64,000 nucleotides of DNA from a virus (Duplodnaviria; Caudoviricetes), in the IMG/VR virus record IMGVR_UViG_3300036868_000046, positions 1 through 64,000 of that record; one strand, given 5' to 3'. Position 1 is the stretch's first letter, and the number at the start of each line of letters is the position of its first letter. Shown here in pieces: positions 8,228 through 26,341 of this stretch. The position numbers and the translations under genes were made by a program. A model generated the notes under the pieces. That model did not search any database and was not told the DNA's origin. It saw nothing but the letters and a program-made list of their open reading frames with translations.

Positions 8228-10471
8228 TAACCCCGAAGCAAGTCGCCGATGCTGCGGCCGGGAACCCGCTGCTGCAGGTCTTAGAGATGAAGATCGACGC
8301 GGCGCTCAGGCAAGCAGCGGACGAGAACTACTGGCCGTGCACGGTCGACCTTCGCGGTTTCGATAACGTCGCCGAGCAAGTCGCGATGAAGTACCGCGCG
8401 GCCGGTTGGCACGTCAACATCTTCCACTACCGCCGTGGCGGGTACTTCTTGGAGCTGGCGGCCCGCCACGACCGCATCCCTGACCGAAAAGGAGATGGTC
8501 ATGCATGACTTCAAGTTCCTGCGCACCGCCCAAGGGGAGGCGAGCCATGCTGCATGGTGATCCGAACCTCAAGGACGGTGACCACGTCCGCTGGGTGAGC
8601 GGCATATGTCCAGCCAACACCGTTGTTGGCTGGCTGCGCGGCGACGAGATCATCGTCGAGTACGACACGTTCGCTTCACCTCATTTATTAAGGGGTAAGG
8701 CTTTCACGCTGCCCACGACGGGCAGGCTGGACCACCACCCCATCGCCAAGCTCTGCCACCGCATCGCGGCGGGGGGCGCGTACGACGGGCTGACGGCCGA
8801 GCAGTGCTTCGTGGCCTTCCAGGCGGCGCAGCAGGGTGCGTATGGGTTCGAGGGACGGCCCATGCCCGAGGATGGCCCGCGACCGGCGTCCCTCACCCCT
8901 GCGCAGCTCGCCGTCGCACGTGAGCTGTGGAGCGCGAAGCTGCGCGCCAAGATCGCAGCGGCGCGGGCATCCGAGCCGCGCGTGCTCGTCGATCTCGACC
9001 TGGATGGCCTATGACCAACAAGGAAGGTGGAGCGCCTATGAGCTGCTGCTGGGACGTCTGGTGTGTCGACTGTGCCACGAGGCTCGGAGTCAACGATGCG
9101 AACCACCGCGTCGTCGAGATGCGCATGCTCGTGAAGCATGCGAAGACGATCGAGATGCTCGGAGCCATCCAGGGCGAGATGCTCGAGAAGACGTTGAGCT
9201 ATGCGCCATTGTATGTCGAGCTCAATGGCATCACCATCGAGCCGATCTGGTTCCGTGTTCACGCCGGGCATCACCTCGTGCCGATCAACGAATACGGCGA
9301 GCTCGACAAGGGCGAGGAGAGCGGTCGGGCCGAGGACGATGAGCCATTCTGAAAAAGCGACCGTGAGACCTGGGTAAGGACATCCGCTACCACGCCTCCG
9401 TCCTGTATGGTCCACGGGAACAGCAGGAGGGATGACATTTGACCCGGTTCACGATCGAGCAGTACGACAAGGCGATCCAGCATCTGCAGGACGCCAGGAC
9501 CCAGCTCGCGCCCGACGGACACGGCTGTCACTGCTGCGGGGGCAGCGGTCACCAGGCGTTCGAGTGCGGCCACAACCCGCTCGTCGCCATGCAGATGTGC
9601 GAGATGATCACCAAGCGGGCCGTGGAGCTCCACGAGGCGCTCCACGACACCACAACAGGGATCTGTGACCTGTTCAAGCTCGCGAGACACAGCGACCAGA
9701 GCATCGAGCAGCGGAACCTGACCGTCATGGCGGCAGCCGCTGACGAAGACATGCAGGAACTACTGGTCACGCTCCACGAGTTCCTGCACTCCCTGGCGGG
9801 CATGAACATGTACATGGGCATGCAGCTCGGGCCGGCTCGGGTGGTGCTGCCGTGAGCTCCAAGCTATGGAGCGACCACCAGATCGTCCTGTTGCTGACGG
9901 TCGATGGTGAGCATTTCCGCCTCTTCATCTTCGCCCCAGACGACGAGAAGTCAGGTCCGTCCGTCGCAGTCCACCGGAAGGGGCGTGATGCGATCGGTGA
10001 CCCGTGCTGGAATGCGGTCTCTAACCAAAGGGCGCTGTCCCTGTCGCTGGTTGCGCTGGCGCGATTCGCCTTCGTGGCGTGCGTCGGAGCTCCGCATCAT
10101 CGGTGCGAGATCAAGCGCTCAGAGACCGGGCTGACGTACTACGAGCTCGACCTCGGCAACTTCTCTACCAAGGATGACATGCACGGTCATCTCCATGGCG
10201 AATGACCGTGGGTAGGAAACTTCGACCGCTTGCCGAGTGCTACGACCTGATCGAAGTCCGTGCGATTCGACTCGTCCGCTTGCACGTCGCCGGTCGTGAG
10301 CCGATGTCGAGCGCCGCCGCGAGGCGGAACCGCGAGCAACGTGACAAGGCGTTCGATCGCCTGGTCGCGGCAGTCGAGGAGCGCGACCGCGCTGCGATGG
10401 CCCATGAGGAACGGTGCGTGTTCCGGTCCAAGGCTGCGGCCACGCGTCGTCGGAACGGCGGCTCAAAGTAG
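8224..10471 (+). CDS. Small hypothetical ORFs (8224-8508, 8547-9014, 9011-9352, 9439-9855, 9852-10205, 10202-10471)
   Basis: Coupled ORFs with RBS-like motifs. 9439-9855 carries a CHCCGGSGHQAFEC zinc-knuckle-like motif. Confidence 0.55.
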
Positions 10472-10538
10472 CTCAGAGGAGTCTGAGACCTCCGGTCTTC
10501 GCAAGGCGGCGATCGGATACCGAGAAAGGAGATGTTTC

Positions 10539-12392
10539 ATGGGAAGTATCTGCGTCTACGAGTATGGCCTCATGCCGCCCAGCGAGGGAGCGGCGATAGT
10601 CGATGGCCAGATGTTCAAGGCACACCGCTACTACAACGTGCTCATCGAGATCGAGCATGCACGTCGTCTCGCAGTCCGCACCGCGATGTCCAGCCACGCC
10701 GACCTCGTCCCGCTCGAGGCCGAGCTCGAGAAGCTGGTCGCCGAGCAGGACGCGGCGAGGACGGCCATCAAGGCCGGTCGCAAGGCAACGCGATCCAAGT
10801 CGGAGAGCGCCGAGCAGCGCCAGGCCGTCCGGACCCTGGGTGAAAGGGTCAAGGAGCTCCGCCGGCTCACCAAGGCCGCCAGGACGGCCGTGCGCGAAGA
10901 CCCCGAGATCGCGGCCAAGATCGAGGCCGCCAACGAGGAGGCCAAGGTCAAGTGCAAGCAGGCCCGCGCCGCGTGCGGGGTCTACTGGGGGACCTACCTG
11001 CTCAAGGAGCAGGCCGCCGACGCCGCGCGCAAGAGCGTGACGCCGCCCAGGTTCGGGCGGTGGACGGGGGAGGCGAAGGTCTCCGTCCAGATCCAGCACG
11101 GCCTGTCGCTCGACAGGCTGTTCTCCGGGGGCAGCCAGCAGATCCAGATCGATCCTGTGCCGGAAGAGGCGTTCCTGATCCGCGGAGCTCGCCGGCGGGC
11201 GCGCGCATGCCTCACCAACCTCCGCATGCGGGTCGCGTCCGAGGACGGCAAGCCGGTGTGGGCGCACTGGCGGATCTGGCTGCATCGCCCGCTGCCCGAT
11301 GGCGCCCTGGTCAAGGTCGCCACGGTGTCGCGGCGCAACGTCCACTGCTCGCGCCAGCAGTGGGTGATGCACATGACGGTCGACACGAGCGCCTGCAAGC
11401 AAAGGGTCCGGCCCGACGGCGGGGTGCTGGCCCTGAACCTCGGCTACTGCCTCACCGAGGAGGGGTTCATCCGGTCGGGATACGCGGTCGGGGACGACAG
11501 CCACGAGCAGGAGATCCTCGTGGTCAAGAGCGACTATTACCGGACGGACCACGTCCGGCCCGATGGCATCCCGAATCCGGGTCGCGGCGTCAAGCAGAAC
11601 TACATCGTGAACGGCCTCGGCAAGAGCGCCAGCATCGAGGGGTTCAGGGACAAGAACCTGAACGAGTTCCTGGCGACGATCGGGCCGTGGCGGGAGACGA
11701 TGGCGAGCGCCGGCAAGCTGCCGGAGTGGTTCGTCGAGCGCACCAAGACGATCCACGCCTGGCGCTCTCAGCGGCGCCTCTACGCGCTCCACACGGTATG
11801 GGGCAAGCAGCGGTTTGATGGGGACCAGGCCGGGTGGGATGTGCTGGTCGCCTGGCGCGCACGCGATGCCCACCTTGACGCCTACCAGGCCGCGCTCCGC
11901 ATCTCCTCGCTCCGCGATCGCCGCGAGGGCTACCGCATCCTGGCCTCGCGGATGGCCAAACGCTACCGGACGCTCATCATCGACGACTTCGACCTGCGGA
12001 CGTTCATCCGGACGCCGGCGGCGGAGAGCGAGCGGCCAAACGTCGAGGTGTACCGGAAACAGCAGTTCACCGCGGCGTGCTCCGAGCTGCGCCAGGTGTT
12101 CGCCAACGCGTTCGGTGCCGAGAACGTCGTGAAGCTGTCGAGCAAGGACGTCTCGCGGCTCTGCCCGTGCGGCAACATCGTCGAGGTGTCCCCGGCGCGC
12201 ATCCAGGTGTGCGGGGCGTGCGGCATCTCCTGGGACCAGGACGCGAACGCCTGTCGCAACCTCCTGCGCATGCACGCCGCCCAGGGCGCCGGACCCGCGA
12301 AGGACGAGAAGAAGCCGAGCCGGTCGCAGCGGCTCCGATCGAACAAGCGCAAGGGCAAGGGCGATGCGCAGGCCAGCGAGGCGACGCAGTGA
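10539..12392 (+). CDS. Cas12m-like (type V-M / V-U1) CRISPR effector, about 617 aa, with a non-canonical RuvC
   Basis: AGGAG RBS. N-terminal YEYGL...AHRYYNVLIEIE, long coiled coil, GVYWGTY, RWTGEAKVSVQ and HRPLP. RuvC-I VLALNLGY (Asn in place of Asp), RuvC-II LIIDDFD (Asp in place of Glu), zinc finger CPCG..CGACG, RuvC-III WDQDANA. Size and motif order match my recollection of Cas12m; the cognate array is nearby. Confidence 0.8.
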   Translation: MGSICVYEYGLMPPSEGAAIVDGQMFKAHRYYNVLIEIEHARRLAVRTAMSSHADLVPLEAELEKLVAEQDAARTAIKAGRKATRSKSESAEQRQAVRTLGERVKELRRLTKAARTAVREDPEIAAKIEAANEEAKVKCKQARAACGVYWGTYLLKEQAADAARKSVTPPRFGRWTGEAKVSVQIQHGLSLDRLFSGGSQQIQIDPVPEEAFLIRGARRRARACLTNLRMRVASEDGKPVWAHWRIWLHRPLPDGALVKVATVSRRNVHCSRQQWVMHMTVDTSACKQRVRPDGGVLALNLGYCLTEEGFIRSGYAVGDDSHEQEILVVKSDYYRTDHVRPDGIPNPGRGVKQNYIVNGLGKSASIEGFRDKNLNEFLATIGPWRETMASAGKLPEWFVERTKTIHAWRSQRRLYALHTVWGKQRFDGDQAGWDVLVAWRARDAHLDAYQAALRISSLRDRREGYRILASRMAKRYRTLIIDDFDLRTFIRTPAAESERPNVEVYRKQQFTAACSELRQVFANAFGAENVVKLSSKDVSRLCPCGNIVEVSPARIQVCGACGISWDQDANACRNLLRMHAAQGAGPAKDEKKPSRSQRLRSNKRKGKGDAQASEATQ

Positions 12393-12726
12393 GCAACGGT
12401 GCGACGCCCATGCTGGACAGCCATGGGAGGGTGCTCAGCGAGTGCCCCCAGGACAAGCGCAAGAACTATCCGGTGAGTCCGGACTGTTGCGGGGCGCCCC
12501 AAGGTCTGTACTTCGCCAAGACCATCTATGATGGGGAACGCCTAGTCGCTATCGGCGGCTATATGCTGCGCTGCGCCGTCTGTCACTCCGAAATGGAGGT
12601 CGACCTCGTGACCACCATGATCGCCGGTCACTGGGTACGGGAGGTACTATGAAGTGCGTCAACTCACCCGCGAAGGACGAGAAGAAGCCGAGCCGGTCGC
12701 AGCGGCTCCGATCGAACAAGCGCAAG
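12294..12726 (+). repeat. Identical 60-bp direct repeat, 12294-12353 and 12667-12726
   Basis: A copy of the cas12-like 3' end recurs about 370 bp downstream. Confidence 0.9.
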
Positions 12727-13103
12727 TCCAGCGATCAGACCAGCGAGGCAACACCATGAGCCAGATGCCACATGATGATCCGGAATTTCCCATGCTCGAG
12801 GGGCCATTCGAGAGCCCCCGACCGAACCAGACCAGCGCGGACGACGCGCCGTGCGCCGAGCGGATGACCCGCGCCGAGCTCGCCGACCTGCTGGAGCGCG
12901 TCGCACCGCTCGTCCGATCGGGCGACTCCGCCGAGGGCCGGATCCAGTACCTGCTGCCCGACGAGGGGCCGTGGGACGATGTCATGGTCAGCGTCGCCGT
13001 GCGCTCCGGAAATCTCGGGGGCACCGGCTTCTGGCACGTGATCACGGGAGGTCAAGACATGGACAGCCTCCTCGCCGAGCTCGACAGGAAGGGGCGCCCG
13101 TGA
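12389..13103 (+). CDS. Two small hypothetical ORFs (12389-12652 Cys-containing; 12756-13103)
   Basis: Open frames; GTGA overlap with the cas12-like stop codon. Confidence 0.5.
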
Positions 13104-13327
13104 CCCGAATCGCGCTACTCCTCGTGGTCGCCGCCATGTCAGCGGCCTGCCCGGTGTCTCCGGGCCCCGATCGCTCCACGGTCGAACAGGAGCTCTCGGG
13201 GTCGGGGTCTCCCCTGGTCCGCCCGGATGACAGCTTCTGCGGCTCCCCCTGCTTCGATGACCTCGACTGCTGGGGTGACCAGTGCGTGAGGTGCCTCTCC
13301 GGTCAGTGCCGCGGCCACCCAAGGTGA
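13100..13327 (+). CDS. Small Cys-rich lipoprotein
   Basis: Lipobox MSAAC followed by CGSPCFDDLDCWGDQCVRCLSGQC. Confidence 0.65.
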   Translation: MTRIALLLVVAAMSAACPVSPGPDRSTVEQELSGSGSPLVRPDDSFCGSPCFDDLDCWGDQCVRCLSGQCRGHPR

Positions 13328-13380
13328 GGTGACCGCGAGGATCCTGGAGCTTGAACGGCTCAAGCCGTACAAACGAAGGC

Positions 13381-13928
13381 ATGAAGGTCACCGCCGAGAC
13401 AATCACGGACGAGCAGATCCTGCAGATGCAGGAGGAAACCGTTGAGCTGTTGGGAAGGTTCCCACCGTGCACAACGATCGCGCTGGCGCGGCCGGTTGGA
13501 CGCGATCGGCGTGCTCAACACAAGGTTGCACGCACACGCAAGCTCTACCTTGCTGCGCGTGAGGCATGCGCAGCCCTGTGGAACGCTCGGCACGGAGACG
13601 AGCCGTGAGCATGCACACCCGCAAGACCCTCGCCGGTCGCCTGCATCAGCTGCACTGCCTGATGTGCTTCGACGTCGTGCGCAATGTTCCCAAGGCCAAC
13701 CCGTGTCGCTGCCGCTGCCATCGGGTCACCGCCGAGACGATCACGGACGACCAGATCCGTGAGCTCTGCAACTCCTGCGAGATCTCCTTCGACCGCCTGT
13801 ATCGGGCGGTTCATCGCGAGCGGCCTGTAGGGGAGAGCCAGGCCGCGTACGATAGGCAACGGCTGTACCACAGGGGGCTCGCCGCCGCGGCCTGGAACGC
13901 CCGCCACGGAGACGAGCCTATCGAGTGA
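13381..13928 (+). CDS. Two paralogous small ORFs (13381-13608, 13605-13928) sharing VTAETITD.QI..L and A.WNARHGDEP
   Basis: Shared motifs at both DNA and protein level; a third relative lies at 49119-49340. Confidence 0.65.
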
Positions 13929-13949
13929 CCGCCATGGAGGACGAGCTCC

Positions 13950-14259
13950 GAGTGAGGACCGTGACGTAACACACTCGCGCTCTCTGCCTGCGCCTACCGC
14001 GAGGTGGTGGCGCACAACCTCATCACGCACCTGGAGGCACCGTGAAGCTCAACCCAACGTCAAAGCGAGACCGCTACATACTGACCGTCACTCTCCCGAC
14101 GGGGGAGCAGACGATCGCTCATCAGCTCTGTCAGACGCCGCAGCGAGGCAACGAAATCATGGTCATGGACCTAACAAGGCGCGATCCCTTCCAGCGCGCG
14201 AAGGAGCGTTGCCCTTGAGGCTCTCAACCGCCCTGAGTGAGGACCGTGACGTAACACAC
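13950..14259 (+). repeat. 25-bp direct repeat GAGTGAGGACCGTGACGTAACACAC (13950-13974, 14235-14259)
   Basis: Exact match seen by eye. Confidence 0.8.
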
Positions 14260-14308
14260 CGTTCCACGTAGCAAAGTGGTCCGACCTGGGGCATACGATC
14301 CGCCCCCA

Positions 14309-15745
14309 ATGACGTCACGTGGCTTTCACTTCCTGTTGGTGTTGTTGGCCGGGTGTGCGGGGCCCGCTCTGCGCGTACAGCTGGGACCCTCGGAGCTCCT
14401 CCTGGGGGCGCCAGGATGCTCCCAGGCGACGCCAGGCGATGACCTGGACGACCTGGGCGCCATCCAGGCGGCCATCAATGCCCGCTGCTGCCTGGGGCCC
14501 GGTACGTACGACGTGGATACGCCGGCCGCGCCGCCGGGCGGGCGCCGGCCGTACGCGATGCTGACCGTGCCACTGGATGCCGTGCTCTGCGGCGCCGGTC
14601 CGACCACCGTGATACGGTTCCGCGGCTCCGCCGGCGGGCAAGACTGGCGTGGCATCCAGCTCGCCGGCGGGGGCATCCATGACGTCCTGCTGGACACCTC
14701 CCAGCTCGTGGGGACCTCGGAGCAGACGCACGCCATCCACGTGCGAGGCCCGGCGACCGGCCTCATCGATCGGGTGAGCATCCACCACCCCGAGCGGATC
14801 GCCGGCGGGGTGACGCTGCCGGGCGGCGACTGCATCGACGTGGTGGGGTACGCGCCGGCCGAGCTGGTGGTGGGGCTCGTCATCCGGGACAGCCAGTTCC
14901 TGGCGTGCGACCGCGGAGGCATCCAGGTGCACGGCGGGACCCTGAACCTCACGGTGACCGGCAACGAGTTCCACCGGACCGGCAACCTCGACCTCAACAG
15001 CGAGGGATCGGGCGGATCCAGCCACTGGATCATCGCCGGCAACAGGTTCCGGGCCTCCGACGGCAACCACAGCGAGTACGCCATCGCGCTCGACCTGGTG
15101 GACACCGTGTCGGTGGTCGACAACCAGATCGAGCGCGGCGTGTACCTGTACAGCTGCACGCACTGCTCGCTGGTCAAGAACGCCATCACGATGACCGGGG
15201 GCAGCGCGGTCGAGACGGGGACCATCGAGGCCATCAAGGGCTCGAACGATCTGGTGATCGAGGAGAACGTCATCCGCCGGCCGGCGACGCAGGACTTCGG
15301 CCCCCTCCTCCACGTTGGTCCGCATGGCACCGCGCAGAGCGTCGGCGTTCGCGTCATTCACAACGAGCTCATCCAGGAGACCACGTCGGACATGATCTAC
15401 GCCGAGGGCGTCGCCGACCTGGCCATCGTCGACAACGCGCTCGAATACCGGGCCGCGGCGACCGGCGCCGCCGGGGTGCGTCTTCTGGGCAGCGCCACCT
15501 ATGGAACGTCGAAGGTGGCGCTGGTCGGCAACACCTTCGCAGGACCGCTCCGCTCGGCCGTCATGACCGGCGGCTCGGGGGAAAGGCAGGGGATCGGCTC
15601 GCTCTTGTCCGCCTGGAACATCGCGGAGGCGCCGGGGCTGGCGTGCGTCAACACGTCCGGCATCCAGGGGCCGCTCCTCCTCATCTACAACAGCTGGCCG
15701 GCGGCGATCTGTGGGTCACCGCCCATCCCGCTGATGCTTCCGTAG
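14309..15745 (+). CDS. Lipoprotein with a right-handed beta-helix (pectate lyase 3 / depolymerase-like)
   Basis: Lipobox LLAGC, DDLGAIQAAINA...PGTY, and repeated V.I.DN.F beta-helix rungs. Confidence 0.75.
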   Translation: MTSRGFHFLLVLLAGCAGPALRVQLGPSELLLGAPGCSQATPGDDLDDLGAIQAAINARCCLGPGTYDVDTPAAPPGGRRPYAMLTVPLDAVLCGAGPTTVIRFRGSAGGQDWRGIQLAGGGIHDVLLDTSQLVGTSEQTHAIHVRGPATGLIDRVSIHHPERIAGGVTLPGGDCIDVVGYAPAELVVGLVIRDSQFLACDRGGIQVHGGTLNLTVTGNEFHRTGNLDLNSEGSGGSSHWIIAGNRFRASDGNHSEYAIALDLVDTVSVVDNQIERGVYLYSCTHCSLVKNAITMTGGSAVETGTIEAIKGSNDLVIEENVIRRPATQDFGPLLHVGPHGTAQSVGVRVIHNELIQETTSDMIYAEGVADLAIVDNALEYRAAATGAAGVRLLGSATYGTSKVALVGNTFAGPLRSAVMTGGSGERQGIGSLLSAWNIAEAPGLACVNTSGIQGPLLLIYNSWPAAICGSPPIPLMLP

Positions 15746-15756
15746 ATTCCGCTCGC

Positions 15757-15868
15757 GTCTCAGGCGTTCGCCTGAGCGTGTCCCCATTGGTCGGTTCGTG
15801 GGTCTCAGACCGATGTCTGAGCGCTTCACCCTCGTGGGTCTCAGGCAGACACCTGAGCATTTCCTGAC
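15757..15868 (-). repeat. Mini-array A: 3 minimal CRISPR-repeat hairpins GTCTCA-N-TGAGC
   Basis: Units at 15757, 15802 and 15838, each with a different paired inner stem; spacers of 24 and 15 nt; intergenic. Confidence 0.75.
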
Positions 15869-15898
15869 TGTGGACATGTCCGCGCATGATAGTTTCAT

Positions 15899-16300
15899 GT
15901 GGACATGGCGTTCACAGGCACCCCCGTCATCCAGCAGCTGAACGATCGCACGGTGCGCATCACCGGCGTGTCCCTCGCGCTCTCCACCGCCGGGACCATC
16001 GGCCTGACGGGGGCGACGGGCACACCGCCCGACATCACCCTCCCTGCCAACTTCCGCGCGGCCGTGTACAGCTACAACGGCTCCTCGGTGCCGCTGCAGG
16101 CGAGCATCCAGTGCTGGGTCGAGCCGGTGACGATCGCCGGGGTCACCAACCTCCCGCCATCCGTCGGCAAGACTGGGACCGCCGTGACGGACTTCCGCAT
16201 CACCATCACGAACACCAACACCGGGCTCGCAACGCAGGACCTCGAGATCCTCGTCATCTCCCACATGCCCTACGTCGGCGCGCCCGCGCAGATCGCCTGA
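15899..16300 (+). CDS. Beta-rich putative virion protein (paralog of 19119-19475)
   Basis: MAF.GT.V..Q..DR.VRITGV.L.....GTI.LTG.TGT.PDITLP is shared with 19119-19475. Confidence 0.7.
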   Translation: MDMAFTGTPVIQQLNDRTVRITGVSLALSTAGTIGLTGATGTPPDITLPANFRAAVYSYNGSSVPLQASIQCWVEPVTIAGVTNLPPSVGKTGTAVTDFRITITNTNTGLATQDLEILVISHMPYVGAPAQIA

Positions 16301-16308
16301 GGTCCACC

Positions 16309-16944
16309 ATGTCATCGGACAAGCTGTTCGTCATCCTCGACTTCACCGGGGTCGTCATCGGCGGCACGCAGACGCTGAGCCACGGGCTCAAGATCAACGG
16401 CCAGCCACTGGCGCCGGACATGGTGTGGCTCCAGTACCCCGACCTCTTCGAGGTCACCGCGGCGACGACCACGAGCATCACCGTTCACAACGTGAGCGCG
16501 AGCGGCGGCGCCACGCTGGCGCTGTGCCAGGTCATCCATCCGATCATGCGCTCGTTCGGTTCGCCGCCTGATGACGGCTCGCTGATACAGCACATGACGC
16601 CCCAGCCGTTCGTAGTCGGCTCGCCGAACGCGACGCCGACTCCGACCCCGACGGGACTGACCGTGACGGCGGTGCAGACAGCAAACGTCGTCCTGACCTC
16701 GAGCTCGAACGTCGTCCGGGTGAACCCGACCGGCGGGGCTTTCAGCGTCACGCTGCCGGCTGCCTCCACGGTCGGTGGCCAGTCGACCATCGTCAAGAAC
16801 GTCTCGTCCTCGGGCAACCTCATCACCGTGCTGCCTGGAGGGGGCGACACCATCGACGGTCTGGCACAGGCAACCCTCTCCGGGGATCACTTCAAGTGGT
16901 GGGTCATCAGCGATGGGGCCTCCGGCTGGATGATTGTCGGCTGA
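16309..16944 (+). CDS. Putative spike/fibre-associated protein
   Basis: C-terminal V.LP.A......Q...VKN...SGN.ITV.PGGGDTIDG motif typical of phage fibre domains. Confidence 0.55.
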   Translation: MSSDKLFVILDFTGVVIGGTQTLSHGLKINGQPLAPDMVWLQYPDLFEVTAATTTSITVHNVSASGGATLALCQVIHPIMRSFGSPPDDGSLIQHMTPQPFVVGSPNATPTPTPTGLTVTAVQTANVVLTSSSNVVRVNPTGGAFSVTLPAASTVGGQSTIVKNVSSSGNLITVLPGGGDTIDGLAQATLSGDHFKWWVISDGASGWMIVG

Positions 16945-16965
16945 CGCATGACGACAGAGACAGGG

Positions 16966-18470
16966 GTCTCAAGGCGATTCCCTGAGCTTCCTTGCCGTTG
17001 GTGCAGGTGTCTCAAGGCATGGAGCCCTGAGCGTTTCTTGCGACGACAGTCTCGGGTCGGGTCTCAAGCACGTCTCAAGGCATGGAGCCTTGAGCATTTC
17101 TTGCTACCGGATCGCACCTTCGCCGCGCGCGTCCTCGGGTGGCAGGTCTCAAGGCGTTTGAGCCCTGAGCATCCCTTGCGGTGACGAGCTCGCGGTAGAT
17201 GAGCCTCCAAGTCTCAAGGCGAGGGCCCTGAGCATCCCTTGTGACAAGTACGGCCTCGCGTGCCTGGTCTCAAGGCGCGGTGCCCTGAGCATCTCTTGCG
17301 ACGTCAACGGTAGAGCGCGCATGCTGCACGTCTCAAGGCATGGAGACTTGAGCATTTCTTTGCGACGACAGCCACCGACGCGTCTCAAGGCATGGAGCCT
17401 TGAGCATTTCTTGCTACCGGATCGCACGGAGTTCCCGTCTCAAGACGGGAGCCTTGAGCACTTCCAGAGGGTCCATGGCTGCAGGTCTCAAGGCGAGGGC
17501 CCTGAGCATCCCTTGTGACAAGGACGGCCTCGCGTGCCTACCGACGGAAAGCGTCTCAGGGCGAGAGCTCTGAGCATCCCGTATCCCGGGGCTGTCAGTC
17601 TCAAGGCGAGGGCCCTGAGCATCCCTTTCCCTGCCCACACATCGCCCGTCGGGTCTCAAAAGACACGGAGCCTTGAGCATCCCTTGTTGCGTCATTGCTG
17701 GGTCTCAGGGCGTCGGCCCTGAGCATCCCTTTGCAACCCACATCACCGCCGGTGCCGATCTCGCGTCTGGAATTCGATCCGTCCGATCTGCGTCTCAAGG
17801 CATGGAGCCTTGAGCGTTTCCAGCGCGTGCTCGAATCTCAAGGTGATGAGCCCTTGAGCATCCTCCTTTGCGACCGGACCGCGCGGTAGTCGTCGACGAC
17901 GGCGCCCCGTTCGACGCTCTCGGTATCTGGATTGGGGTCTCAAGGCATGGCGCCTTGAGCATCCCTTGCGACACTTCCGGACCGTGTCTCGACATTACGG
18001 GAGTTGGAGTCTCAAGGCATGGAGCCTTGAGCATCCCTTGCGACATCTCATGGGCGCCGCCGCCGACAACCACCAACGAGTCTCAAGGCATGGAGCCTTG
18101 AGCATCCCTTGCGACATGTCGGCGGCGACGGCGTATCCGTCGCGCTGCATCTCGTCTCAAGGCATGGAGCCTTGAGCATCCCTTGCGACCCGTGCCTCGT
18201 TGTTGCGCCAGAGCAGCGCTTGTTCGTCTCAAGGCATGGAGCCTTGAGCATCCCTTGCGACATCTCATGGGCGCCGACAACCACCAACGAGTCTCAAGGC
18301 ATGGAGCCTTGAGCATCCCTTGCGACGTCCCCGACCGCGTATCCCGACCGGATGAACCCCTGTCTCAAGGCATGGAGCCTTGAGCATCCCTTGCGACACA
18401 ATGTCCGCGCCGCGTGCATCGCCTGCAACCTGGAGTCTCAAGGCATGGAGCCTTGAGCATCCCTTGCGAC
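16966..18470 (-). CRISPR. CRISPR array, about 24 repeat units; 36-nt consensus (minus strand) GTCGCAAGGGATGCTCAAGGCTCCATGCCTTGAGAC
   Basis: 7 perfect repeats at 18009, 18080, 18154, 18226, 18291, 18362 and 18435, plus a 1-mismatch copy at 17937, with 29-38-nt spacers. About 16 degenerate units run 16966-17874. The minus orientation puts the 8-bp hairpin plus AC next to the spacer, and a recurrent variant gives a G-U pair only on the minus strand. Confidence 0.95.
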
Positions 18471-18646
18471 CCTTCGTTCCAACTATTCAGTTATCACCAG
18501 GACTTGGATACCTGGTTTCGAGCGGTGGGATCTTCCACGCGAAGTGAGTCACGCTCGTTATTGAGCGTGACGAGAATCCCCAACGTCTCCAGACAGTTGA
18601 TACACGCGAGCGGCCTCCTTGGCAAGCGCGTCACCTCTCCGCTCGC
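18471..18646 (-). promoter_or_regulatory. Putative CRISPR leader
   Basis: Lower GC, adjacent to the most conserved repeat; contains inverted repeat GTCACGCTC/GAGCGTGAC. Confidence 0.6.
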
Positions 18647-19078
18647 GTGATGGTCATCTACCTGGAACTTTCGCTTGACAGGCGATCTCGGATCGCTAGG
18701 GTGACAACGAGGTGCTTCGAGATGCTGACCACAGAACGACTCCATGCGCTCCGGAGGCGCGCGTCCTCGGTCTACGATGATGAGACCATGCAGCGCTCAA
18801 GAAGCGCTGCCCGAGCGCTTCTCCCAGCGATTCACGCACTTGCGCGATCCAAGGGGCAGACGGCGATGCACGCGATCGCCGCCGAGCTGGTAGGGGTCGA
18901 TCCGTCCCTCTGGGACCGGCACGGCTCGCTGGGACGGCTGGCGGCGCGCCTGGCCATCAGCGCGGGGGTCGAGCACGTCCGGGGAGCGCTGGCGTTCTGG
19001 GCGACGGAGCATGATCCCCAGGTGTGGCGGATGATGCTGACCTCGGCCGAGCGACTTCCGGCTGGCTGGACTACGTGA
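18647..19078 (+). CDS. Hypothetical protein (true start may be downstream)
   Basis: Open frame. Confidence 0.5.
   Translation: MMVIYLELSLDRRSRIARVTTRCFEMLTTERLHALRRRASSVYDDETMQRSRSAARALLPAIHALARSKGQTAMHAIAAELVGVDPSLWDRHGSLGRLAARLAISAGVEHVRGALAFWATEHDPQVWRMMLTSAERLPAGWTT
18675..18702 (+). promoter_or_regulatory. Possible sigma70 promoter TTGACA-N16-TAGGGT with a palindrome GCGATC/GATCGC in the spacer
   Basis: Consensus -35 and TAnnnT -10; motif match only. Confidence 0.35.
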
Positions 19079-19118
19079 GACTTCCCTTACCTGGGATGGT
19101 TCGGGTATCTTCCGGGAC

Positions 19119-19475
19119 ATGGCATTCAACGGAACCGCAGTGCTTCACCAGGTCTCGGATCGAGAGGTCCGCATCACCGGCGTGCTTCTGACGACCGGGG
19201 CGTCCGGGACGATCGCCCTGACGGGCCATACCGGGACGACGCCCGACATCACGCTGCCGGCGGCGTTCAAGCCGGCGCCGTACGACTACAGCACGGCGAC
19301 CGTCTCGCTGATCGACTCGATCCAGTGCACGCTGCGGTACATCGACGGAACCGGCGTGGTGACGAACTGCGTGATCGCCAAGACGGGGACCACCAACGCG
19401 GACTTCCGCATCACGGTGACCAACCCGAGCGGCTCGTCCACCTCCGCGATGGAGATGTACGTCGAGTACCACTGA
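19119..19475 (+). CDS. Beta-rich putative virion protein (paralog of 15899-16300)
   Basis: See 15899-16300. Confidence 0.7.
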   Translation: MAFNGTAVLHQVSDREVRITGVLLTTGASGTIALTGHTGTTPDITLPAAFKPAPYDYSTATVSLIDSIQCTLRYIDGTGVVTNCVIAKTGTTNADFRITVTNPSGSSTSAMEMYVEYH

Positions 19476-19477
19476 AG

Positions 19478-20188
19478 CTACGGCTTCTCCTGGACCTGGA
19501 GACGGATTCCGGGCGTGCGGGCGACGCCGGCCAGATCCTCCCAGCCGTACGCGTGGCGACCGTAGTGGAGTAGGCGAATGGTGGTGTCGGCCATGATGGC
19601 GACCTGGCATGTCCGGGCTCGCTTCGAGAACGCGAAATCCTCGCCCAGGTAGGCCACTGGGCGGCTGCCCGGGTCAATCATGGCGATGGTGGTCGTGTCA
19701 ATCATGGGCAGGAAGTACGGCCGCATGACTCGCCCGTGGTACCCGACGCAGTCTGGGATTGGGGACTCGTCATCGAGCCGATGGAAGACCTCGGCCCGGA
19801 CGAGCGTGAACCCCATGGCGGCGTACTGGATCTCGATCAGGCCGCCGCCCTCGCCGAGGGTGAGCTCGGTGGTGTCGGGCAGGAGGCGACAGGCGAGCTC
19901 CGGTACCCCCTTCTTCGTGTAGATGCCGCACACGAAGGGGAGGTTGTGGCCGAGCAACCGATCGACGTCGTCCGGCTCGAACCCGATGTCCGCGTCGATC
20001 CACATGAGCTCGGAGAACCCGTCGGCCAGCGCCTCGGTCGCCATGAGGCACCGTATCTGATCGATGCAGGCGGATCCGCGCAGGACGCGGACCTTGTAGC
20101 CACGTCGCGACAGCTCGGCGAGGCTCCGCTCGCACTCGGGCTCGAGGGCGCCGAGCGAGGGGACCAGGATGCAGGTGGCGGCGGTCAT
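19478..20188 (-). CDS. Glycosyltransferase family 2-like protein
   Basis: GSACIDQIR, LMWIDADIGF (DxD) and LGEDFAFSKRAR..G..I..D..I.L.H.G motifs. Confidence 0.8.
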   Translation of the reverse strand: MTAATCILVPSLGALEPECERSLAELSRRGYKVRVLRGSACIDQIRCLMATEALADGFSELMWIDADIGFEPDDVDRLLGHNLPFVCGIYTKKGVPELACRLLPDTTELTLGEGGGLIEIQYAAMGFTLVRAEVFHRLDDESPIPDCVGYHGRVMRPYFLPMIDTTTIAMIDPGSRPVAYLGEDFAFSKRARTCQVAIMADTTIRLLHYGRHAYGWEDLAGVARTPGIRLQVQEKP

Positions 20189-20753
20189 TCCGGCCCCGGG
20201 ATCGGCATGATGGCGTACCACTCCGAGGTCCACAGGGTCGCCTCGACCATGCATGACCTCAGTGCCTCCAGATGTCGGGCGACGGCGGCGACAGCGGCAT
20301 CGTACGTCTCGGTCACCTCGACCGGACGCTGGAGCTGTCTGGTAGCATCGCACTTCATGACGACGAACTTGATGCTCACTTGGCCTGCCTCAGCTTCTCG
20401 TCGATCACCGCGCGATCGATGAGCCGGTCGATGGCGCCGGCGTCGTCATCTTCCTCGAGTCCATCGAGCTCGTCGTCCGCATGGACGTCGGCCGGGCGGG
20501 TCTCGTTGGCCAGGGCGACCCGGCCGATGTTCTCGATGGGTGGCGCTTTTTTGGGGGCGACGACGCTCATCGGCTCGACGCGCGCGGTCTTGGACAGCCG
20601 GTTGCCGACCACGTACTCCTTGAGCTTGTGGGCGGCGTCCCAGGACAGGCCCTCCCCCCAGAGCTTCACCCAGTCCTTGTCGCGGACGCGGTAGAGCATC
20701 CCCTCCTGCGGCACGAGCTTGACGATCTTCTGCGGCTTGTGGTGCGGTCTCAT
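20185..20753 (-). CDS. Two small hypothetical ORFs (20185-20379, 20376-20753)
   Basis: Coupled open frames. Confidence 0.5.
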
Positions 20754-20811
20754 CGCCGTGAGCCTATCACCACGTGACACGGACCTGAACGGTTCAACGT
20801 GGGGCATCGAG

Positions 20812-20926
20812 GTCTCAGTCGTCGACTGAGCGCGTCCGGCCAAGAGTCTCAGGCTTGAGCCTGAGCGTTCTCGGGCTGGCGCCTGAAGCGGCCACATTCC
20901 TTCGTCTCAGTCTCAGGTGACTGAGC
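20812..20926 (-). repeat. Mini-array B: 3 minimal repeat hairpins
   Basis: Units at 20812, 20846 and 20904, all GTCTCAG-stem-loop-CTGAGC; spacers of 14 and 37 nt. Confidence 0.75.
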
Positions 20927-21872
20927 TATCCGATGCGGCGGCGCCCTTCTTGAAGATGGTCTTCCAGATTGCGGCGCTCACCGGGATGAGCAGCGTCGCG
21001 GCGATCTGCAGCCACTTCTGCAGTTCGGCATGCTGGAGCGTGAGGACGCCGGCTCTGAGCTGGTTGATCACGTCCGCTTCCCACTGCGTGTAGGGGAGCG
21101 TCGGATCGGAGAGCGTGTTCTGCCCAGGGTCGTCGGCGGCGCCGAGCGAGCCGAGGGGGCCCAGCGTACGACGCGGGATCGCCAGTCCGAAGCTCGTCGA
21201 CACCCCCGAGAGCGCCCTTGGCCGTCTGTGTGCCTTGCGGTAGTACATGGGAGCCCTTCAGTTGGGGACGTTCGGCGACAGCGAGCCGTAGTCGTCATCG
21301 CCGATGATGTCCGACAGGTCGGAGAGGTCGTCGGTCGCGGATGTGGGAGGCGCTGCGGTGGGGGGACGGGGAGAGGGGGTGCTCATGCGCCCCGCGTCGT
21401 AGGCATCGTTGTAGGTGTACTCGTTGGGGTCGTCGGCCACCGGCCGCAGCGCCCGCATCTGGAGATGCGGAAGCCCGAGGTCGGCGTTCGGGTCCGCGGC
21501 CGGCAGCTGGGCGTTCGGGTCCGCGAGCATCCAGCCGAGGGACGGCACGTAGAGCTGGATGAGGTTCTGGATGGCGGCGATCGCGGCGCCGACCACGATC
21601 GGGGTGTGGTACTTCTCGAGCCACTTCCACTTGTGGGCGAGCAGCCACGCGGATAGGAACGCTCCGACGGCCGCAGCCGCGCCCGCGTGCTTGCCGATCG
21701 ACGGTGCCCGTTTCGCCACCTGCTCGGTCGCGACCTTGGTGATGAACCGGGTCAGCGCGAACCCGGCGAAGCCGGGCCCGATGAACTCGGCCAGGTCGGT
21801 CATGAGCGGGGGGTTATGTCGTGGCGCAGCCGCGGCCCTGCCGTATCTGCGCTTGAGCCTGGTTCGAGCCAT
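20913..21872 (-). CDS. Two putative virion membrane proteins (20913-21248, 21258-21872)
   Basis: Basic N-termini (MYYRKAHRRPRALSG; MARTRLKRRYGR...HNPP) and hydrophobic helices. Confidence 0.6.
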
Positions 21873-21918
21873 CCCCCCTATCGTACCCCCAGGACGCCAG
21901 GAGGCACAAGGTCGTCGG

Positions 21919-22272
21919 GTCTCAGCGGAGGGCCGCTGAGCAGCCCCAGGGCAGTTCCGCTTGCGGTCTCAGGCTCCATCACGAGCTCTTGCTAGTCTCA
22001 GGCACACCTGAGCGGGTCCCTACGACGCTATGGTCTCAATCGAGGTTGAGCGTATCCGAATATCACCCGTCTCAGCACCCGTTCGTGGCCTGAGCTCGTG
22101 CATGTCTCAGGGTGCTCGGCTACGGTGTGTCTCAACCAAGCGTTGAGCAGCCACGATACCTGATGTCTCATGGTAATCACCTGAGCAGTCCCAGCCACGG
22201 ATGACGACTATTACCTATTCGATTGTCACGACCGCTCCTCTCATGTCTCTGACTATGGGCAGAGCGCATCCC
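21919..22272 (-). repeat. Mini-array C: about 9 minimal repeat hairpins
   Basis: GTCTC starts at 21919, 21966, 21995, 22033, 22069, 22104, 22129, 22165 and 22245. Most close with TGAGC; the last has a compensatory CTCTG/CAGAG stem followed by GCATCCCT. Confidence 0.75.
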
Positions 22273-22322
22273 TACGGGCCCAGAGATACCAGCGCGCGCG
22301 CCACCTGACAAGCACGATCCGG

Positions 22323-24812
22323 TCAGCCGCCCAGGAGAATGACCTTACCCGGATTGCCGGCGGATCCAGCCACGGATATGCCGCCGCCCGCAGCACCACC
22401 TGCACCTCCGGTCACATCCGTGGTCGGGAACGTCGTGCCGGTGGTCATCGAGATGACCACGTAGCCGCCACCACCACCGCCGCCACCACCGGAGTTGATC
22501 GTCGCGTTGCCCGCGCCGCCGGCGCCGCCTTTGGCGGACACCGTGATGTTCGTCGGGTTCGTGATCTGGCCGGTGATGAGGACGACGTAGCCACCGCCCG
22601 ACCCGCCGCCACCGCCCGACCCACCGACCGCACCGCCGCCGGAGGCGCCGCCGGTGCCGCCGCAGACCGCGGTGGAGGTTGAAAGGCGCAACCGGGCGGC
22701 GGTGGCGCGCACGAAGTTGTTGAGCGAGCCGTTGGTGTCGGGGGAGAGGGTGGGCGCCGTCGATCCGACGCCGCCGGTGAACCCCGTGCCTGCGCCGCCA
22801 GAGCCACCGAGCCCCGCCTGAAACGACGTGGGCCACTCGCCGGAGACCGGCGCCTGCCCGGTCTGCCCGTTGGATGCAGCAGGCGCGGAGACGCCGGCGC
22901 CCGACGCGGTGACCAGCGTGCCGTTGCCGGTGAACGCCGCACCACCCGCCGCGCTACCGCCGGCGCCGTTGCCGGCCGTGCCGGGCAGCCCGATCATCTG
23001 GATGGTGAGCGTGCCGGAGCTCGGGCCGGCGAGCGTCTTGGCGTAGATCACGAAGCCGCCGGTGTTGATCACCGCCGAGGTCGTCGCGGAGGCGACCGAC
23101 CAGTACATGTCGCGGGTCAGGGTGACGGTTCCCGAGAACGTGGTGGCGCCGTCGCTGCCGTCGCCGGCCAGGAGAACCGTGGATGGGGCCGAGGTCACGT
23201 TGGCGCTCGCGGTGACGGTGGAGCCGTTGAGCCCGAACGAGACGCCGTTCGAGTTCGAGAACACCACCGTGCCCGCTCCCACGGATGCCGTGCCGGCGCT
23301 GATCGCGACCCCGCCGCCCGGGACCGTGTAGCTGCCGGTGACCGTCGAGCCGTTGAGCCCGAACGAGAGACCGTTGGAGTTCGAGAACACCACCGTGCCC
23401 GCGCCCACCGACGCGGTCCCCGCGCTGATGGCCGCCGGCGCCGTCGACTGCGTGTAGCTCGCGGTGACGGTGGAGCCGTTGAGGCCGAACGAGACGCCGT
23501 TCGAGTTCGAGAACACCACCGTGCCTGCACCGACGGATGCGGCGCCGGCGCTGATCGCCGCCGGTGCGGTGGGCACGGTGTAGCTGCCGGTGACCGTCGA
23601 GCCGTTGAGGCCGAAGGCGAGGCCGTTGGAGTTCGAGAACACGACGGTCCCGGCGCCGACGGATGCGGCGCCGGCGCTGATGGCGGCTGGGGCGGTCGAC
23701 TGCGTGTAGCTCGCCGTGATGCGCGTCGAGCCGCTCAGGCCGAACGACACGCCGTTGGAGTTCGAGAACACGATGGTCCCGCTCGTCGCCGTCTGCGTGC
23801 CGGCGGCGATCGCCCCGGGCGCGGTCGACTGCGAGTAGCTCGCCGTGACCGTGGAGCTCGACAGGCCGAACGTGACACCGTTCGAGTTCGAGAACACCAC
23901 GACCCCGCTCGTCGCCGTCTGCGTGCCTGCGGCGAGGCCGACGCCCGACGCCGTACCACCGGCGGTCTGCACCGAGGCGGTCACCGTGCCGTTGGAGAGG
24001 CCGAACGAGACGCCGTTCGAGTTCGAGAACACGACGGTCCCCGCGCTCCGGCTCTGCGTGCCGGCGCTCACCACGAGCGGTGAGTAGCTCGCCGTCACCG
24101 TCGAGTTGCTCATCCCGAACGAGATGCCGTTCGAGTTCGAGAAGTCGACGACGCCGCTCGTCGCCGACTGGGTTCCCGCGCTGACCGCCACGCCCGCGCT
24201 CGTGATGTCCTCGCTGAGCGCCGCGAAGCCGATGTTGACGACGGGGCTTCCGGGGTTGATGGGAGGGACGCCGCTGCGCCGGACCCGCATCCAGGCGGCG
24301 GCGATCACGCCGGACTGGCCGCCCGGCCCCTGCGAGAACACGAACGGCTGCGCCCAGTCGGTCGTGCCGTCGACCGACACCTCGACGATGAGCGTCCCGC
24401 CGAACGCGCCGCCGACCTGCACCGTCTTGAACAGGCCCAGCACCGCCGTGACGTCCACCGCGGCGCCCGCCCCCGTGCCGGCCGGCACCGGCAACGAGAC
24501 GAACGACACGCCCGAGGCCGTGCCGCCGATGTTCACCTGCGACGTGCCACCGAAGGTCGCGTTGAACCCGGACGACCGCACGCGCATCCAGCGCGCCGCG
24601 ACCTGGACCGTCGTGGATCCGGAGTTCTGGATGCTCGCGACCGACTGCCACGAGCCGCCCTGCGCGGCGTCGTTGTTGTATTCGATGTTGATGGTCCGCT
24701 GTGCGGTGCCGACCACCACGATGGTCTTGGTCGCACCGAACGCAGAGACGTCCACGGATGCGCCGACGCCGTTGGCCACCGGGACGGGGAGCGAAACGAA
24801 CAGGTTGCTCAC
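22323..24812 (-). CDS. Long Gly/Ser-rich fibre or spike protein with eight ~38-aa FSNSNG repeats
   Basis: GTG start after GGAGG; 8 copies of (S/A)AG....(A/S)G.VVFSNSNG.SFGL...TVT.SY; Gly-rich C-terminal domain. Confidence 0.8.
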   Translation of the reverse strand: MSNLFVSLPVPVANGVGASVDVSAFGATKTIVVVGTAQRTINIEYNNDAAQGGSWQSVASIQNSGSTTVQVAARWMRVRSSGFNATFGGTSQVNIGGTASGVSFVSLPVPAGTGAGAAVDVTAVLGLFKTVQVGGAFGGTLIVEVSVDGTTDWAQPFVFSQGPGGQSGVIAAAWMRVRRSGVPPINPGSPVVNIGFAALSEDITSAGVAVSAGTQSATSGVVDFSNSNGISFGMSNSTVTASYSPLVVSAGTQSRSAGTVVFSNSNGVSFGLSNGTVTASVQTAGGTASGVGLAAGTQTATSGVVVFSNSNGVTFGLSSSTVTASYSQSTAPGAIAAGTQTATSGTIVFSNSNGVSFGLSGSTRITASYTQSTAPAAISAGAASVGAGTVVFSNSNGLAFGLNGSTVTGSYTVPTAPAAISAGAASVGAGTVVFSNSNGVSFGLNGSTVTASYTQSTAPAAISAGTASVGAGTVVFSNSNGLSFGLNGSTVTGSYTVPGGGVAISAGTASVGAGTVVFSNSNGVSFGLNGSTVTASANVTSAPSTVLLAGDGSDGATTFSGTVTLTRDMYWSVASATTSAVINTGGFVIYAKTLAGPSSGTLTIQMIGLPGTAGNGAGGSAAGGAAFTGNGTLVTASGAGVSAPAASNGQTGQAPVSGEWPTSFQAGLGGSGGAGTGFTGGVGSTAPTLSPDTNGSLNNFVRATAARLRLSTSTAVCGGTGGASGGGAVGGSGGGGGSGGGYVVLITGQITNPTNITVSAKGGAGGAGNATINSGGGGGGGGGYVVISMTTGTTFPTTDVTGGAGGAAGGGISVAGSAGNPGKVILLGG

Positions 24813-24844
24813 GGATATACCTCCACTTGGGCTTTCGGGGCCGT

Positions 24845-26341
24845 CTACCGCCACACGGGGCGGCCGAGCTGCTCGCCCGGCTCGTCGATGAAGTGGAGGC
24901 TTCCGAACGCGTCCTGGATCTCGGAGAGCTCGACCTCGTCCGGGTCCATGTCATCCACGAGGTCGGCGCGCGACAGGTTGAGGAGCTGCTCGCGGTTCGC
25001 GACGAGGAGCTGCTTCTTGAAGTCTTCCAGCGACAGGCCCTGGTAGCCCGGCATGCCTCGGAGCGCGCGCCAGACCGCAGCGATGAACACCTTGTCGCTG
25101 CCGTAGCGACCCATCGCCCGGCCGCTCGGACCCTTCCGCTCTCGCACCGAGGGCAAGACCGACAGCACTGCCTGCGCCAGATCCCCGATCGAATGGGGGG
25201 ACGCCGTGGCGACGATCGTGCGCGGCACTGGCGGTGGCGATGGCGGCGCAACCGGCGTGTCCACGACGAAGTGATACGTCGCGATGTCGTCGTAGGTCTC
25301 CGACTCGGCGACCTCGTTCGGGTTCATCGCCGCCACGAGATCCGCGCGCGCCAGCACGAGCTGCCGAGCGCGGTGCGCCTTGGTGAGCTCGTGTTTGAAC
25401 TCCGGGAAAGCCATCCCGCCCATCCGCGGATCGTTCGCCAGGACGCGCCAGATCGCGCTGATGAACACCTTGCGATCGCCGAACCGGCCGCGCCAGCGTC
25501 CATCTGGATCGGTCTCGGCGCGGATGGTCGGCATCACGGAGCGAACGATCGCGGCCAGCGCGGCTGGATCGGGTCGCGCGCGCCGGACCGGAGCTGGAGC
25601 TGGAGCCGGCGAGGGCGACAGGACCGCTTCGCGAAACGCCTGGATGCCGGCCGGCTTGGCCAGAAACCTGGCGTTCTCATCCTTCGCGTCCTCGTTGCCG
25701 GTGAAGAACAGGAACCTGTCGACGTACTGCGGGTAGTTGTCGCGCACGTAGTGGAAGAAGTCGATGCCGCTCTTGTCGCCGATCACGTCGACGTCCGAGA
25801 CGATCAGCACCGGCTCGAGGAACCGCAGGTTGCCGATCATGCCGTCGACGTTGTCCGAGACGACGACATGCGCCCCCGGGATGATCTTCTTGATCATCCG
25901 GGTCGTCGACTTCTGCAGCGCCGGCTCGTCCTCGAGCAAGAGGACCGTGGCCTCCCCCGCGTTGCGCTTGACGGGGTTTGGATGGATGCCACCCCGCGGC
26001 TCCGCGCCACCCTCCCATCCGACCTCGATGTCGTCGCCCCGGCGTTCGACCTCGACGGTGAACGTCGGGACCGAGATGTCGGCCCGCGCCGCGGCGTCGA
26101 CGTAGGAGTCCGGCGCTTCGCCGATCGCGAGCTGGACCAGGCACTCCCCAATGTCCACGCCGCCACCGGCGCGCCGCAGCCGGTGCGCGACGTCGAGCAC
26201 GCCCTCGTGGTTGGCGAGCTCGTAGAGGTCGGCCAGCTCTCCAGCCGCCTCCACGATGGCCTTGGGCGCCCGACCGACGCCTCCGATCTGGTCACGCCAG
26301 ATCGCGGCGGCCATCTCCAGGATGAGTGCCTGTCGCGTCAT
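24845..26341 (-). CDS. Receiver (REC) domain protein with two C-terminal GRFG.xKVFI..RADLV repeats
   Basis: VLLLEDE...LIVSDVD...FFTG...FLAKP supplies all receiver catalytic positions; the C-terminal domain is duplicated. Confidence 0.8.
   Translation of the reverse strand: MTRQALILEMAAAIWRDQIGGVGRAPKAIVEAAGELADLYELANHEGVLDVAHRLRRAGGGVDIGECLVQLAIGEAPDSYVDAAARADISVPTFTVEVERRGDDIEVGWEGGAEPRGGIHPNPVKRNAGEATVLLLEDEPALQKSTTRMIKKIIPGAHVVVSDNVDGMIGNLRFLEPVLIVSDVDVIGDKSGIDFFHYVRDNYPQYVDRFLFFTGNEDAKDENARFLAKPAGIQAFREAVLSPSPAPAPAPVRRARPDPAALAAIVRSVMPTIRAETDPDGRWRGRFGDRKVFISAIWRVLANDPRMGGMAFPEFKHELTKAHRARQLVLARADLVAAMNPNEVAESETYDDIATYHFVVDTPVAPPSPPPVPRTIVATASPHSIGDLAQAVLSVLPSVRERKGPSGRAMGRYGSDKVFIAAVWRALRGMPGYQGLSLEDFKKQLLVANREQLLNLSRADLVDDMDPDEVELSEIQDAFGSLHFIDEPGEQLGRPVWR

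Follow-up and report, generated by a model that had tools for sequence, protein, structure and literature searches.

The first 64,000 nucleotides (the window) of the Caudoviricetes virus record IMGVR_UViG_3300036868_000046 carry a gene for a Cas12m protein, a type V-M CRISPR array and, dispersed between genes, a family of minimal repeat-like hairpins that form the subject of this study. The record, referred to here as G000, spans 78,782 bp with 66% G+C and has a direct terminal repeat of 125 bp; no near-identical phage records were found. An earlier note, drawn from the letters of the window alone, had described about 15 such hairpin units in three intergenic clusters. These are present where it placed them, as 13 well-formed G-CUCA-stem-loop-stem-UGAG-AC hairpins and two partial ones in clusters A, B and C. 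The strict pattern GTCTCA-N-TGAGC is matched 40 times in the window, where shuffling predicts 1.2 and yields 5 at the most, and 24 of the 40 are repeats of the CRISPR array at 16966-18470. A looser pattern, applied to the whole record with dinucleotide shuffles as control, finds 20 paired units outside the array, a figure that includes about three likely chance matches within genes, against a shuffle mean of 4.0 and a maximum of 8. Five further units lie beyond the three clusters, one alone (unit E) and four together (cluster D). All 18 well-formed units read G-stem-AC.

Cluster A (15757-15858, minus strand) consists of three units, at 15838-15858, 15802-15822 and 15757-15777, separated by spacers of 15 and 24 nt. 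It lies between the plus-strand genes 14276-15745 and 15899-16300 and is antisense to both, gene strands having been fixed throughout by GC3 (third codon position G+C) frame analysis. Cluster B (20812-20926, minus strand) also has three units, at 20910-20926, 20846-20866 and 20812-20831; the first overlaps the TGA stop codon of gene 20913-21248, and the last ends 4 nt ahead of the next gene's ATG at 20807. Cluster C (21919-22265, minus strand) is the largest, with seven well-formed units at 22245, 22165, 22129, 22069, 22033, 21995 and 21919 and the partial units at 22104-22124 and 21966-21986, and is flanked by a fibre-like gene with its stop at 22323 and by an ATG at 21872. Unit E (10471-10489, plus strand) is a lone G-CTCAGA-GGAG-TCTGAG-AC hairpin with a 6-bp stem and a dG of -7.9. 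Its first base falls on the TAG stop of the upstream open reading frame (ORF) 10202-10471, and the ATG of cas12m follows 49 nt downstream. Cluster D, with four plus-strand units, lies outside the window at 70967-71107 of the record. The units inside any one cluster are all in direct orientation.

The CRISPR array is divided into two parts, both on the minus strand. The canonical part (17937-18470) contains eight repeats of 36 nt with spacers of 29-38 nt, each repeat ending at its 3′ side in the hairpin and AC. The degenerate half (16966-17859) contains 16 repeats with variable inner stems and loops, spacers of 7-55 nt and segmental duplications, and is intermediate in form between the canonical repeats and the mini units. 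A leader-like, less G+C-rich stretch (18471-18646) lies beside the canonical part; this position, together with the hairpin at the 3′ end of the minus-strand repeat, identifies the minus strand as the CRISPR RNA (crRNA) sense, in which the repeat reads ...GGGAU-G-CUCAAGGC-UCCAU-GCCUUGAG-AC. The 12-nt GTCGCAAGGGAT part of the full repeat is absent from the mini units, and about half of them are preceded by GGGAY or GGAY, a weak vestige of the repeat's 5′ part, in keeping with the earlier observation that most of these 12 nt had been lost. Mini-unit spacers measure mostly 8-24 nt, as had been noted, with outliers of 43 and 58 nt. The mini units do not qualify as a CRISPR array in their own right: stems and loops vary, the sites are intercistronic and the spacers are irregular, against an array norm here of about 30-38 nt. 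Arrays at other Cas12m loci are likewise irregular in period, with 46-60 nt alongside about 72 nt, and variable in their hairpin loops (L003, 11921-13347; L037, 1211-3014; L039, 647-1850), so short-spacer units may, on sequence grounds, be common within V-M arrays.

The cas12m gene (10539-12392, plus strand) encodes a protein of 617 aa that matches solved Cas12m structures (PDB 23vw, E=1.3e-63; Cas12m2, 8hio, E=6e-10). Its RuvC triad is a non-canonical N-D-D, and its match to the Pfam Cas12f1-like TNB domain (21.9 bits) falls under the 26.3-bit cut-off. The homology and the N-D-D triad mark it as a type V-M effector. Cas12m proteins process their own precursor crRNA (pre-crRNA) and silence through DNA binding; binding without cutting is common to the tested orthologs, those with an N-D-D triad included (PMC11013384). 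In the Cas12m2 structure, the crRNA handle forms a helix that a non-canonical G(-23):A(-2) pair closes and C(-1) follows; His269 and Arg270 of the WED domain read the G:A pair and C(-1) base-specifically, the helix is held via its backbone, and the first seven repeat nucleotides are disordered (PMC10442227). In GoCas12m, the 5′ repeat part contributes to a triplex or pseudoknot, and processing occurs within the repeat (PMC11013384). The matching WED His-Arg pair is kept in the G000 protein and in the Cas12m proteins of its relatives. The invariant G, CUC...GAG and AC of the mini units are the counterparts of the bases read by Cas12m2, and the closing G:A pair, the helix and the terminal C(-1) are found in all 18 well-formed units; the full 5′ part of the roughly 30-nt folded handle is not. 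The connection that the earlier note drew between the mini units and the Cas12m system is therefore well supported, since the units keep the determinants that Cas12m2 reads. The cas12m gene has one further peculiarity, an exact 61-nt duplication of its 3′ end, which encodes a basic C-terminal tail (12293-12353 and 12666-12726, 373 nt downstream); the duplicate is followed by a diverged 45-nt continuation and sits at the start of ORF 12654-13103.

Relatives recovered by Cas12m-based and gene-based searches have in common with G000 its structural genes and the operon that surrounds clusters B and C (about 50-80% protein identity). G000 itself (78.8 kb) combines Cas12m, eight canonical and 16 degenerate repeats and about 18-20 dispersed units of the CTCA class. 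G001 (86.4 kb; Cas12m 36% identical to that of G000) has no array and carries six (T)AG-CCAGCG-loop-CGCTGG-AC hairpins, and G008 (81.1 kb; 43%), also without an array, has six copies of the same CCAGCG class, several of them orthologous to those of G001. L018, a 45-kb metagenome contig (40%), has a three-repeat mini array after cas12m and about ten dispersed G-CTCGG...CCGAG-AC units, and G009 (86.3 kb; 45%) has about 55 G-CTCG...CGAG-AC units and no canonical array. Three complete genomes without Cas12m (G004, G006 and G007; 75.6-82.6 kb) have no hairpin family, their matches staying at a background of 0-3. These counts were keyed on the outer stem and replaced a generic count of G...AC-flanked hairpins that was too noisy to discriminate; as in G000, they exceed dinucleotide shuffles in G001 (7 against 0.4) and G009 (55 against 2.5). 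In both genomes with an array, G000 and L018, the hairpin family corresponds to the genome's own CRISPR repeat. The sequences suggest that the hairpin class shifts with the Cas12m ortholog and vanishes without Cas12m, although with eight genomes, some of them close kin, this co-occurrence is suggestive and not proof. The presence of hairpins in relatives with Cas12m and their absence from those without it suggest that Cas12m acts on the virus's own mRNAs. More distant Cas12m loci with ordinary arrays (L002-L005, L020, L021, L026 and others) revealed no clear dispersed family in the sequence examined; L031 has five scattered CTCG...CGAG-AC hairpins.

The stems of the units are maintained by compensatory change. 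Pairs 1-3 are invariant in G000, and pairs 4, 5 and 6 are paired in 100%, 90% and 74% of units. When the 3′ arms were permuted 2000 times and pairing was compared position by position, these values fell to 75%, 59% and 42%, and the observed pairing was matched by 0, 0 and 3 permutations, respectively. Pair 4 is A-U in most units and once inverted to U-A, and pairs 5 and 6 use as many as five pair types per position. The units of G009 covary too (0 of 2000 permutations for pairs 5 and 6). Every inner stem pair listed in the earlier note is present, and its argument from covariation is borne out, in that fixed outer and flanking parts beside inner parts that vary yet remain paired are not a pattern produced by decay. 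This arrangement suggests that the parts read by Cas12m are fixed, whereas those that are merely held are free to vary as long as they pair.

These data bear directly on the proposal that Cas12m plays no role and that the units are either fragments of a decaying array, spread by recombination in a virus without cas1 or cas2, or generic intercistronic hairpins with a mere likeness to the repeat, such as factor-independent terminators, RNase III-type sites or 3′ stabilisers of mRNA. The trailer half of the array, with its continuum of degenerate repeats, short spacers and segmental duplications, and the half-unit remnants found in spacers would be compatible with decay, but decay would not keep compensatory pairing or an invariant G...AC in more than 50 units. 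Many units lie right after stop codons, where stabilisers or terminators are expected, and one relative, G004, keeps a single hairpin without Cas12m. Generic hairpins, however, would not switch class with the Cas12m ortholog or vanish in its absence. Intrinsic terminators were rejected as an identity because no U-tract follows the units; a scan of 10000-23000 placed no terminator-like sites at dispersed units, and overall terminator counts were at shuffle level. Repetitive extragenic palindromic (REP) elements and the related BIME elements were likewise set aside, since the genome has no PF01797 match, and hence no Y1 transposase/RAYT to spread REP-like elements, and since the cluster units are direct and not inverted pairs. 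Rfam gave nothing at the clusters of the window and nothing anywhere in G001 and G004. On balance, the lack of any Cas12m-related function appears decidedly unlikely.

The placement of the units largely follows the transcription of the virus. Across genomes, about 20 of 22 clusters or lone units are co-directional with their flanking genes. In G000, unit E and clusters B, C and D run in the direction of the genes beside them, and only cluster A is clearly antisense; among the relatives, the same direction is shared by all dispersed units of L018, four of five intergenic units of G001 and six of seven clusters of G009, the seventh being the array homolog with its own leader. Many units start on or just past the upstream stop codon, and a cluster's last unit ends 4-50 nt ahead of the next start codon. 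The position of cluster B is occupied in G000, G001 and L018, and that of cluster C in G000, G009 and L018. In G001, the cluster B position, directly after the homolog of gene 20913-21248, holds one hairpin; in L018, the dispersed units lie in gaps between genes of the syntenic minus-strand operon, those at B and C among them; and in G009, four units occupy the C position and fifteen lie farther along that operon. One G009 unit is orthologous to the last unit of cluster C, from which it differs in its inner stem while sharing the downstream CCGACGACC. G009 also has six units in the 5′ untranslated region of cas12m, ending 31 nt before the ATG, which parallels unit E, and, at the site syntenic to the G000 array, an A+T-richer leader with nine mini units behind it, whose spacers measure 12-36 nt.

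Several other features of G000 and its relatives were recorded. The plus strand of G000 carries two type II hammerhead ribozymes, at 43727-43796 (44.8 bits) and 44156-44228 (40.5 bits), both above the Rfam gathering score; they lie between genes of another operon, so that G000 also uses self-cleaving RNAs at cistron borders. No hammerhead ribozymes were found in G001 or G004. Adjoining cluster A, two copies of the 10-nt word TGTGGACATG, spaced 28 nt apart, lie within 15866-15910, just ahead of gene 15899-16300, and may be an operator or promoter element. Next to cluster C, the fibre-like ORF 22323-24854 (minus strand, 843 aa) contains 126-nt (42-aa) tandem repeats at 23205-23900 and has an unusual codon-position G+C; its G001 homolog occupies a different genomic place (48.1-50.1 kb), and cluster C sits at the resulting synteny break. 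Among the neighbouring genes, Pfam and PHROGs assigned nothing beyond gene 14276-15745, whose product resembles a beta-helix tail spike, and a single family without known function. G001 (loci L006-L010) has about ten copies of a 13-15-nt palindrome, (C)TTGCCA[C/G]TGGCAA(G), for example at 5527, 15411, 28208, 62988 and 76644, which is absent from G000, occurs once in G009 and may be a lineage-specific operator or terminator. A 141-nt unit is present in two tandem copies of 99% identity at 7394-7675 of G000.

Decoying offers another explanation, in which the hairpins would act as Racr-like sponges that soak up the Cas12m of a host, of a rival plasmid or virus or of the virus itself into guide-less, inert complexes. 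An RNA anti-CRISPR function is proven for solitary repeat units that imitate CRISPR repeats (PMC10651486). V-M systems, which are enriched on plasmids and which certain prophages likewise encode, serve inter-element conflict, and tandem hairpins with very short spacers have the look expected of a sponge. In a Racr, however, the cognate cas gene is absent from the virus, and here cas12m and the array share one genome. Where an array exists, the hairpin class matches the virus's own repeat and not a known host repeat, and the classes follow the Cas12m ortholog; relatives without Cas12m, which would have equal need of decoys, carry none. The repeat hairpin had no exact match in either IMG/VR or a set of 185,579 species genomes. 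Decoys against a host system thus fit badly with both the own-repeat match and the absence of hairpins from Cas12m-less relatives. The decoy function raised in the earlier note is possible but appears quite improbable.

The units might also supply short guides of the CreR/crlRNA type, the hairpin and 10-24 nt downstream being matured and directing the non-cutting Cas12m to partly matching promoters, whether those of the host, of rival elements or of the virus. Cas12m silences by DNA binding. Upstream of cas12a, repeat-like elements occur commonly and serve as CreR autorepressors; unit E and the six units of G009 have the corresponding location relative to cas12m. Some spacers are 14-24 nt long, the last unit of each cluster has an open-ended downstream sequence, and the 8-nt spacer ATGCACGA recurs in G000 and G009. 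Many spacers of G000 and its relatives are nevertheless only 4-14 nt, against the 17-bp heteroduplex of Cas12m2 (PMC10442227), and targets were not evident. Searches for spacer self-targets by anchored k-mers and blastn-short in G000, G001, G004, G009, L018 and other loci returned only chance-level matches of 9-13 nt or matches between duplicated spacers, and genome-wide spacer matches showed no excess beyond that explained by spacer duplication. A CreR-type match of at least 7 nt, proximal to the protospacer adjacent motif (PAM) and within about 2 kb of cas12m, was found in neither G000 nor G009, the PAM of this ortholog not being established. One array spacer had no exact match in IMG/VR. 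The guide function proposed in the earlier note consequently found no support, as matches of the spacers, whether mini or canonical, to the virus and its relatives, to IMG/VR and to the genome collection never exceeded chance, and its suggested comparison of the flanking sequences with the phage genome likewise gave chance-level matches only. A short-guide function is unlikely in our assessment.

The reading we prefer, with a little less than even confidence, is that the units are cis-acting, Cas12m-binding hairpins in viral mRNAs that serve processing, stability, translation control or autoregulation. As minimal copies of the virus's own crRNA handle, with the closing G:A, three fixed outer pairs and the terminal C, they would be written into viral transcripts in mRNA sense, between cistrons and in 5′ leaders. 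By the logic of the Cas12m2 structure, Cas12m would bind them as it binds a CRISPR repeat. Because what follows a unit is either of insufficient length or just the leader of the next gene, the complex would act on the RNA in cis instead of guiding DNA targeting. Its likely effects would include the separation or stabilisation of late-operon cistrons, cutting or protection of transcripts at cistron borders, control or occlusion of the translation starts 4-50 nt downstream and, by way of the leader hairpin, feedback on cas12m itself. Cleavage at the units and the direction of any regulatory effect are speculative. Among the three functions put forward in the earlier note, a role in the late transcript is, in this general form, the best supported: the intercistronic, co-directional sites and the occupancy of the B and C positions in some Cas12m relatives agree with it, while its specific claim of Cas12-dependent processing is weakened by the antisense cluster A and by the largely missing 5′ part in which cutting takes place.

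Several observations weigh against a cis-acting role. Most of the 12-nt 5′ repeat part, where Cas12m cuts pre-crRNA, is missing from the units, which may therefore bind weakly and escape cleavage. The stop codon of the preceding ORF is overlapped by several units, and a cut upstream of the hairpin would truncate that ORF; a simple processing site, moreover, does not call for tandem runs of up to 15 units. Cluster A runs antisense to the genes on either side, and G001, G008 and L018 have no unit in the cas12m leader. The co-occurrence of Cas12m and hairpins is drawn from eight non-independent genomes. In addition, the Cas12m-less G004 (locus L014) keeps one bulged hairpin (37845-37877), ending in CTGGAC, at the B position; it directly follows the homolog of gene 20913-21248, resembles the hairpin class of G001 and may be a relic of a lost Cas12m system.

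A more specific form of the cis-acting reading is that Cas12m has been co-opted in this lineage as a hairpin-specific RNA-binding factor for the virus's own polycistronic transcripts, its handle, cut back to the minimum that the protein reads, serving as a cis element for processing, stability or translational timing and for feedback on cas12m, a proposal that we regard as possible yet on the doubtful side. The array-less G001 and G008 and the mini-unit-only G009 would then show that an RNA-binding role, and not guide-directed DNA silencing, is under selection.

Repeat-like RNAs outside arrays have known roles as decoys against host CRISPR and as guides that tune cas promoters. The virus described here combines the effector with dozens of minimal handles inside its own operons, and relatives that have lost the array retain both effector and hairpins. 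If Cas12m does bind these sites, viral gene expression would involve CRISPR effectors in a second role that needs no guide, and a natural class 2 effector would act as a post-transcriptional regulator of a viral regulon. This would also explain why viruses without adaptation genes keep a binding-only Cas12m. A minimal RNA element recognised by Cas12m would thereby be defined, with potential use in compact RNA-tagging or regulatory tools, and the three natural hairpin classes with their cognate proteins would provide a ready-made specificity swap.

In phage T7, intercistronic hairpins are cut by a hairpin-specific RNase of the host, RNase III. The intercistronic hairpins of G000 are analogous in position, and the T7 sites differ in their dependence on a host enzyme. 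One report, a 2026 preprint, describes a Cas12m that a virus encodes together with an array. Our literature search found no published description of handle hairpins running through the operons of a Cas12m virus, of array-less Cas12m viruses that keep such hairpins, or of a natural viral regulon read by the virus's own Cas12 effector.

The closest molecular counterpart is the type V-M repeat and the Cas12m crRNA scaffold (MmCas12m2, PMC10442227; GoCas12m and MsCas12m, PMC11013384), with which the units share the order of G, stem, loop, stem, A, C and then the guide position. The effector likewise has the His-Arg readers and an N-D-D triad, the latter of a characterised type (PMC11013384). The units differ in being 17-29 nt long instead of 36 nt, in the loss of most of the 5′ part and in their varying inner stems and loops; they are followed by 4-24-nt spacers or a gene leader and lie inside operons, unlike a leader-driven array. 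CreR/crlRNA elements, degenerate mini-CRISPRs upstream of cas genes that occur at about half of V-A loci and serve autoregulation (bioRxiv 10.1101/2023.03.10.532045; 10.1101/2023.03.03.530964), resemble unit E and the six G009 units as degenerate repeats beside the effector gene. A CreR spacer, however, partly matches the cas promoter beside a PAM, a match not found in G000; most G000 units are far from cas12m, in structural-gene operons, and V-M is not among the described CreR cases. DREDGE (bioRxiv 10.1101/2025.03.17.643761) offers a man-made likeness, in which a repeat hairpin placed in an mRNA makes it a substrate of a repeat-binding Cas protein. Racr (PMC10651486) and viral mini-arrays (PMC6858448) are similar to the present units as repeat-derived hairpins in a viral genome outside a normal array, but they mimic the host repeat and exploit or block host Cas proteins. 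G000, in contrast, mimics its own repeat, encodes the cognate cas12m on the same genome and places the units mostly in sense between its own genes.

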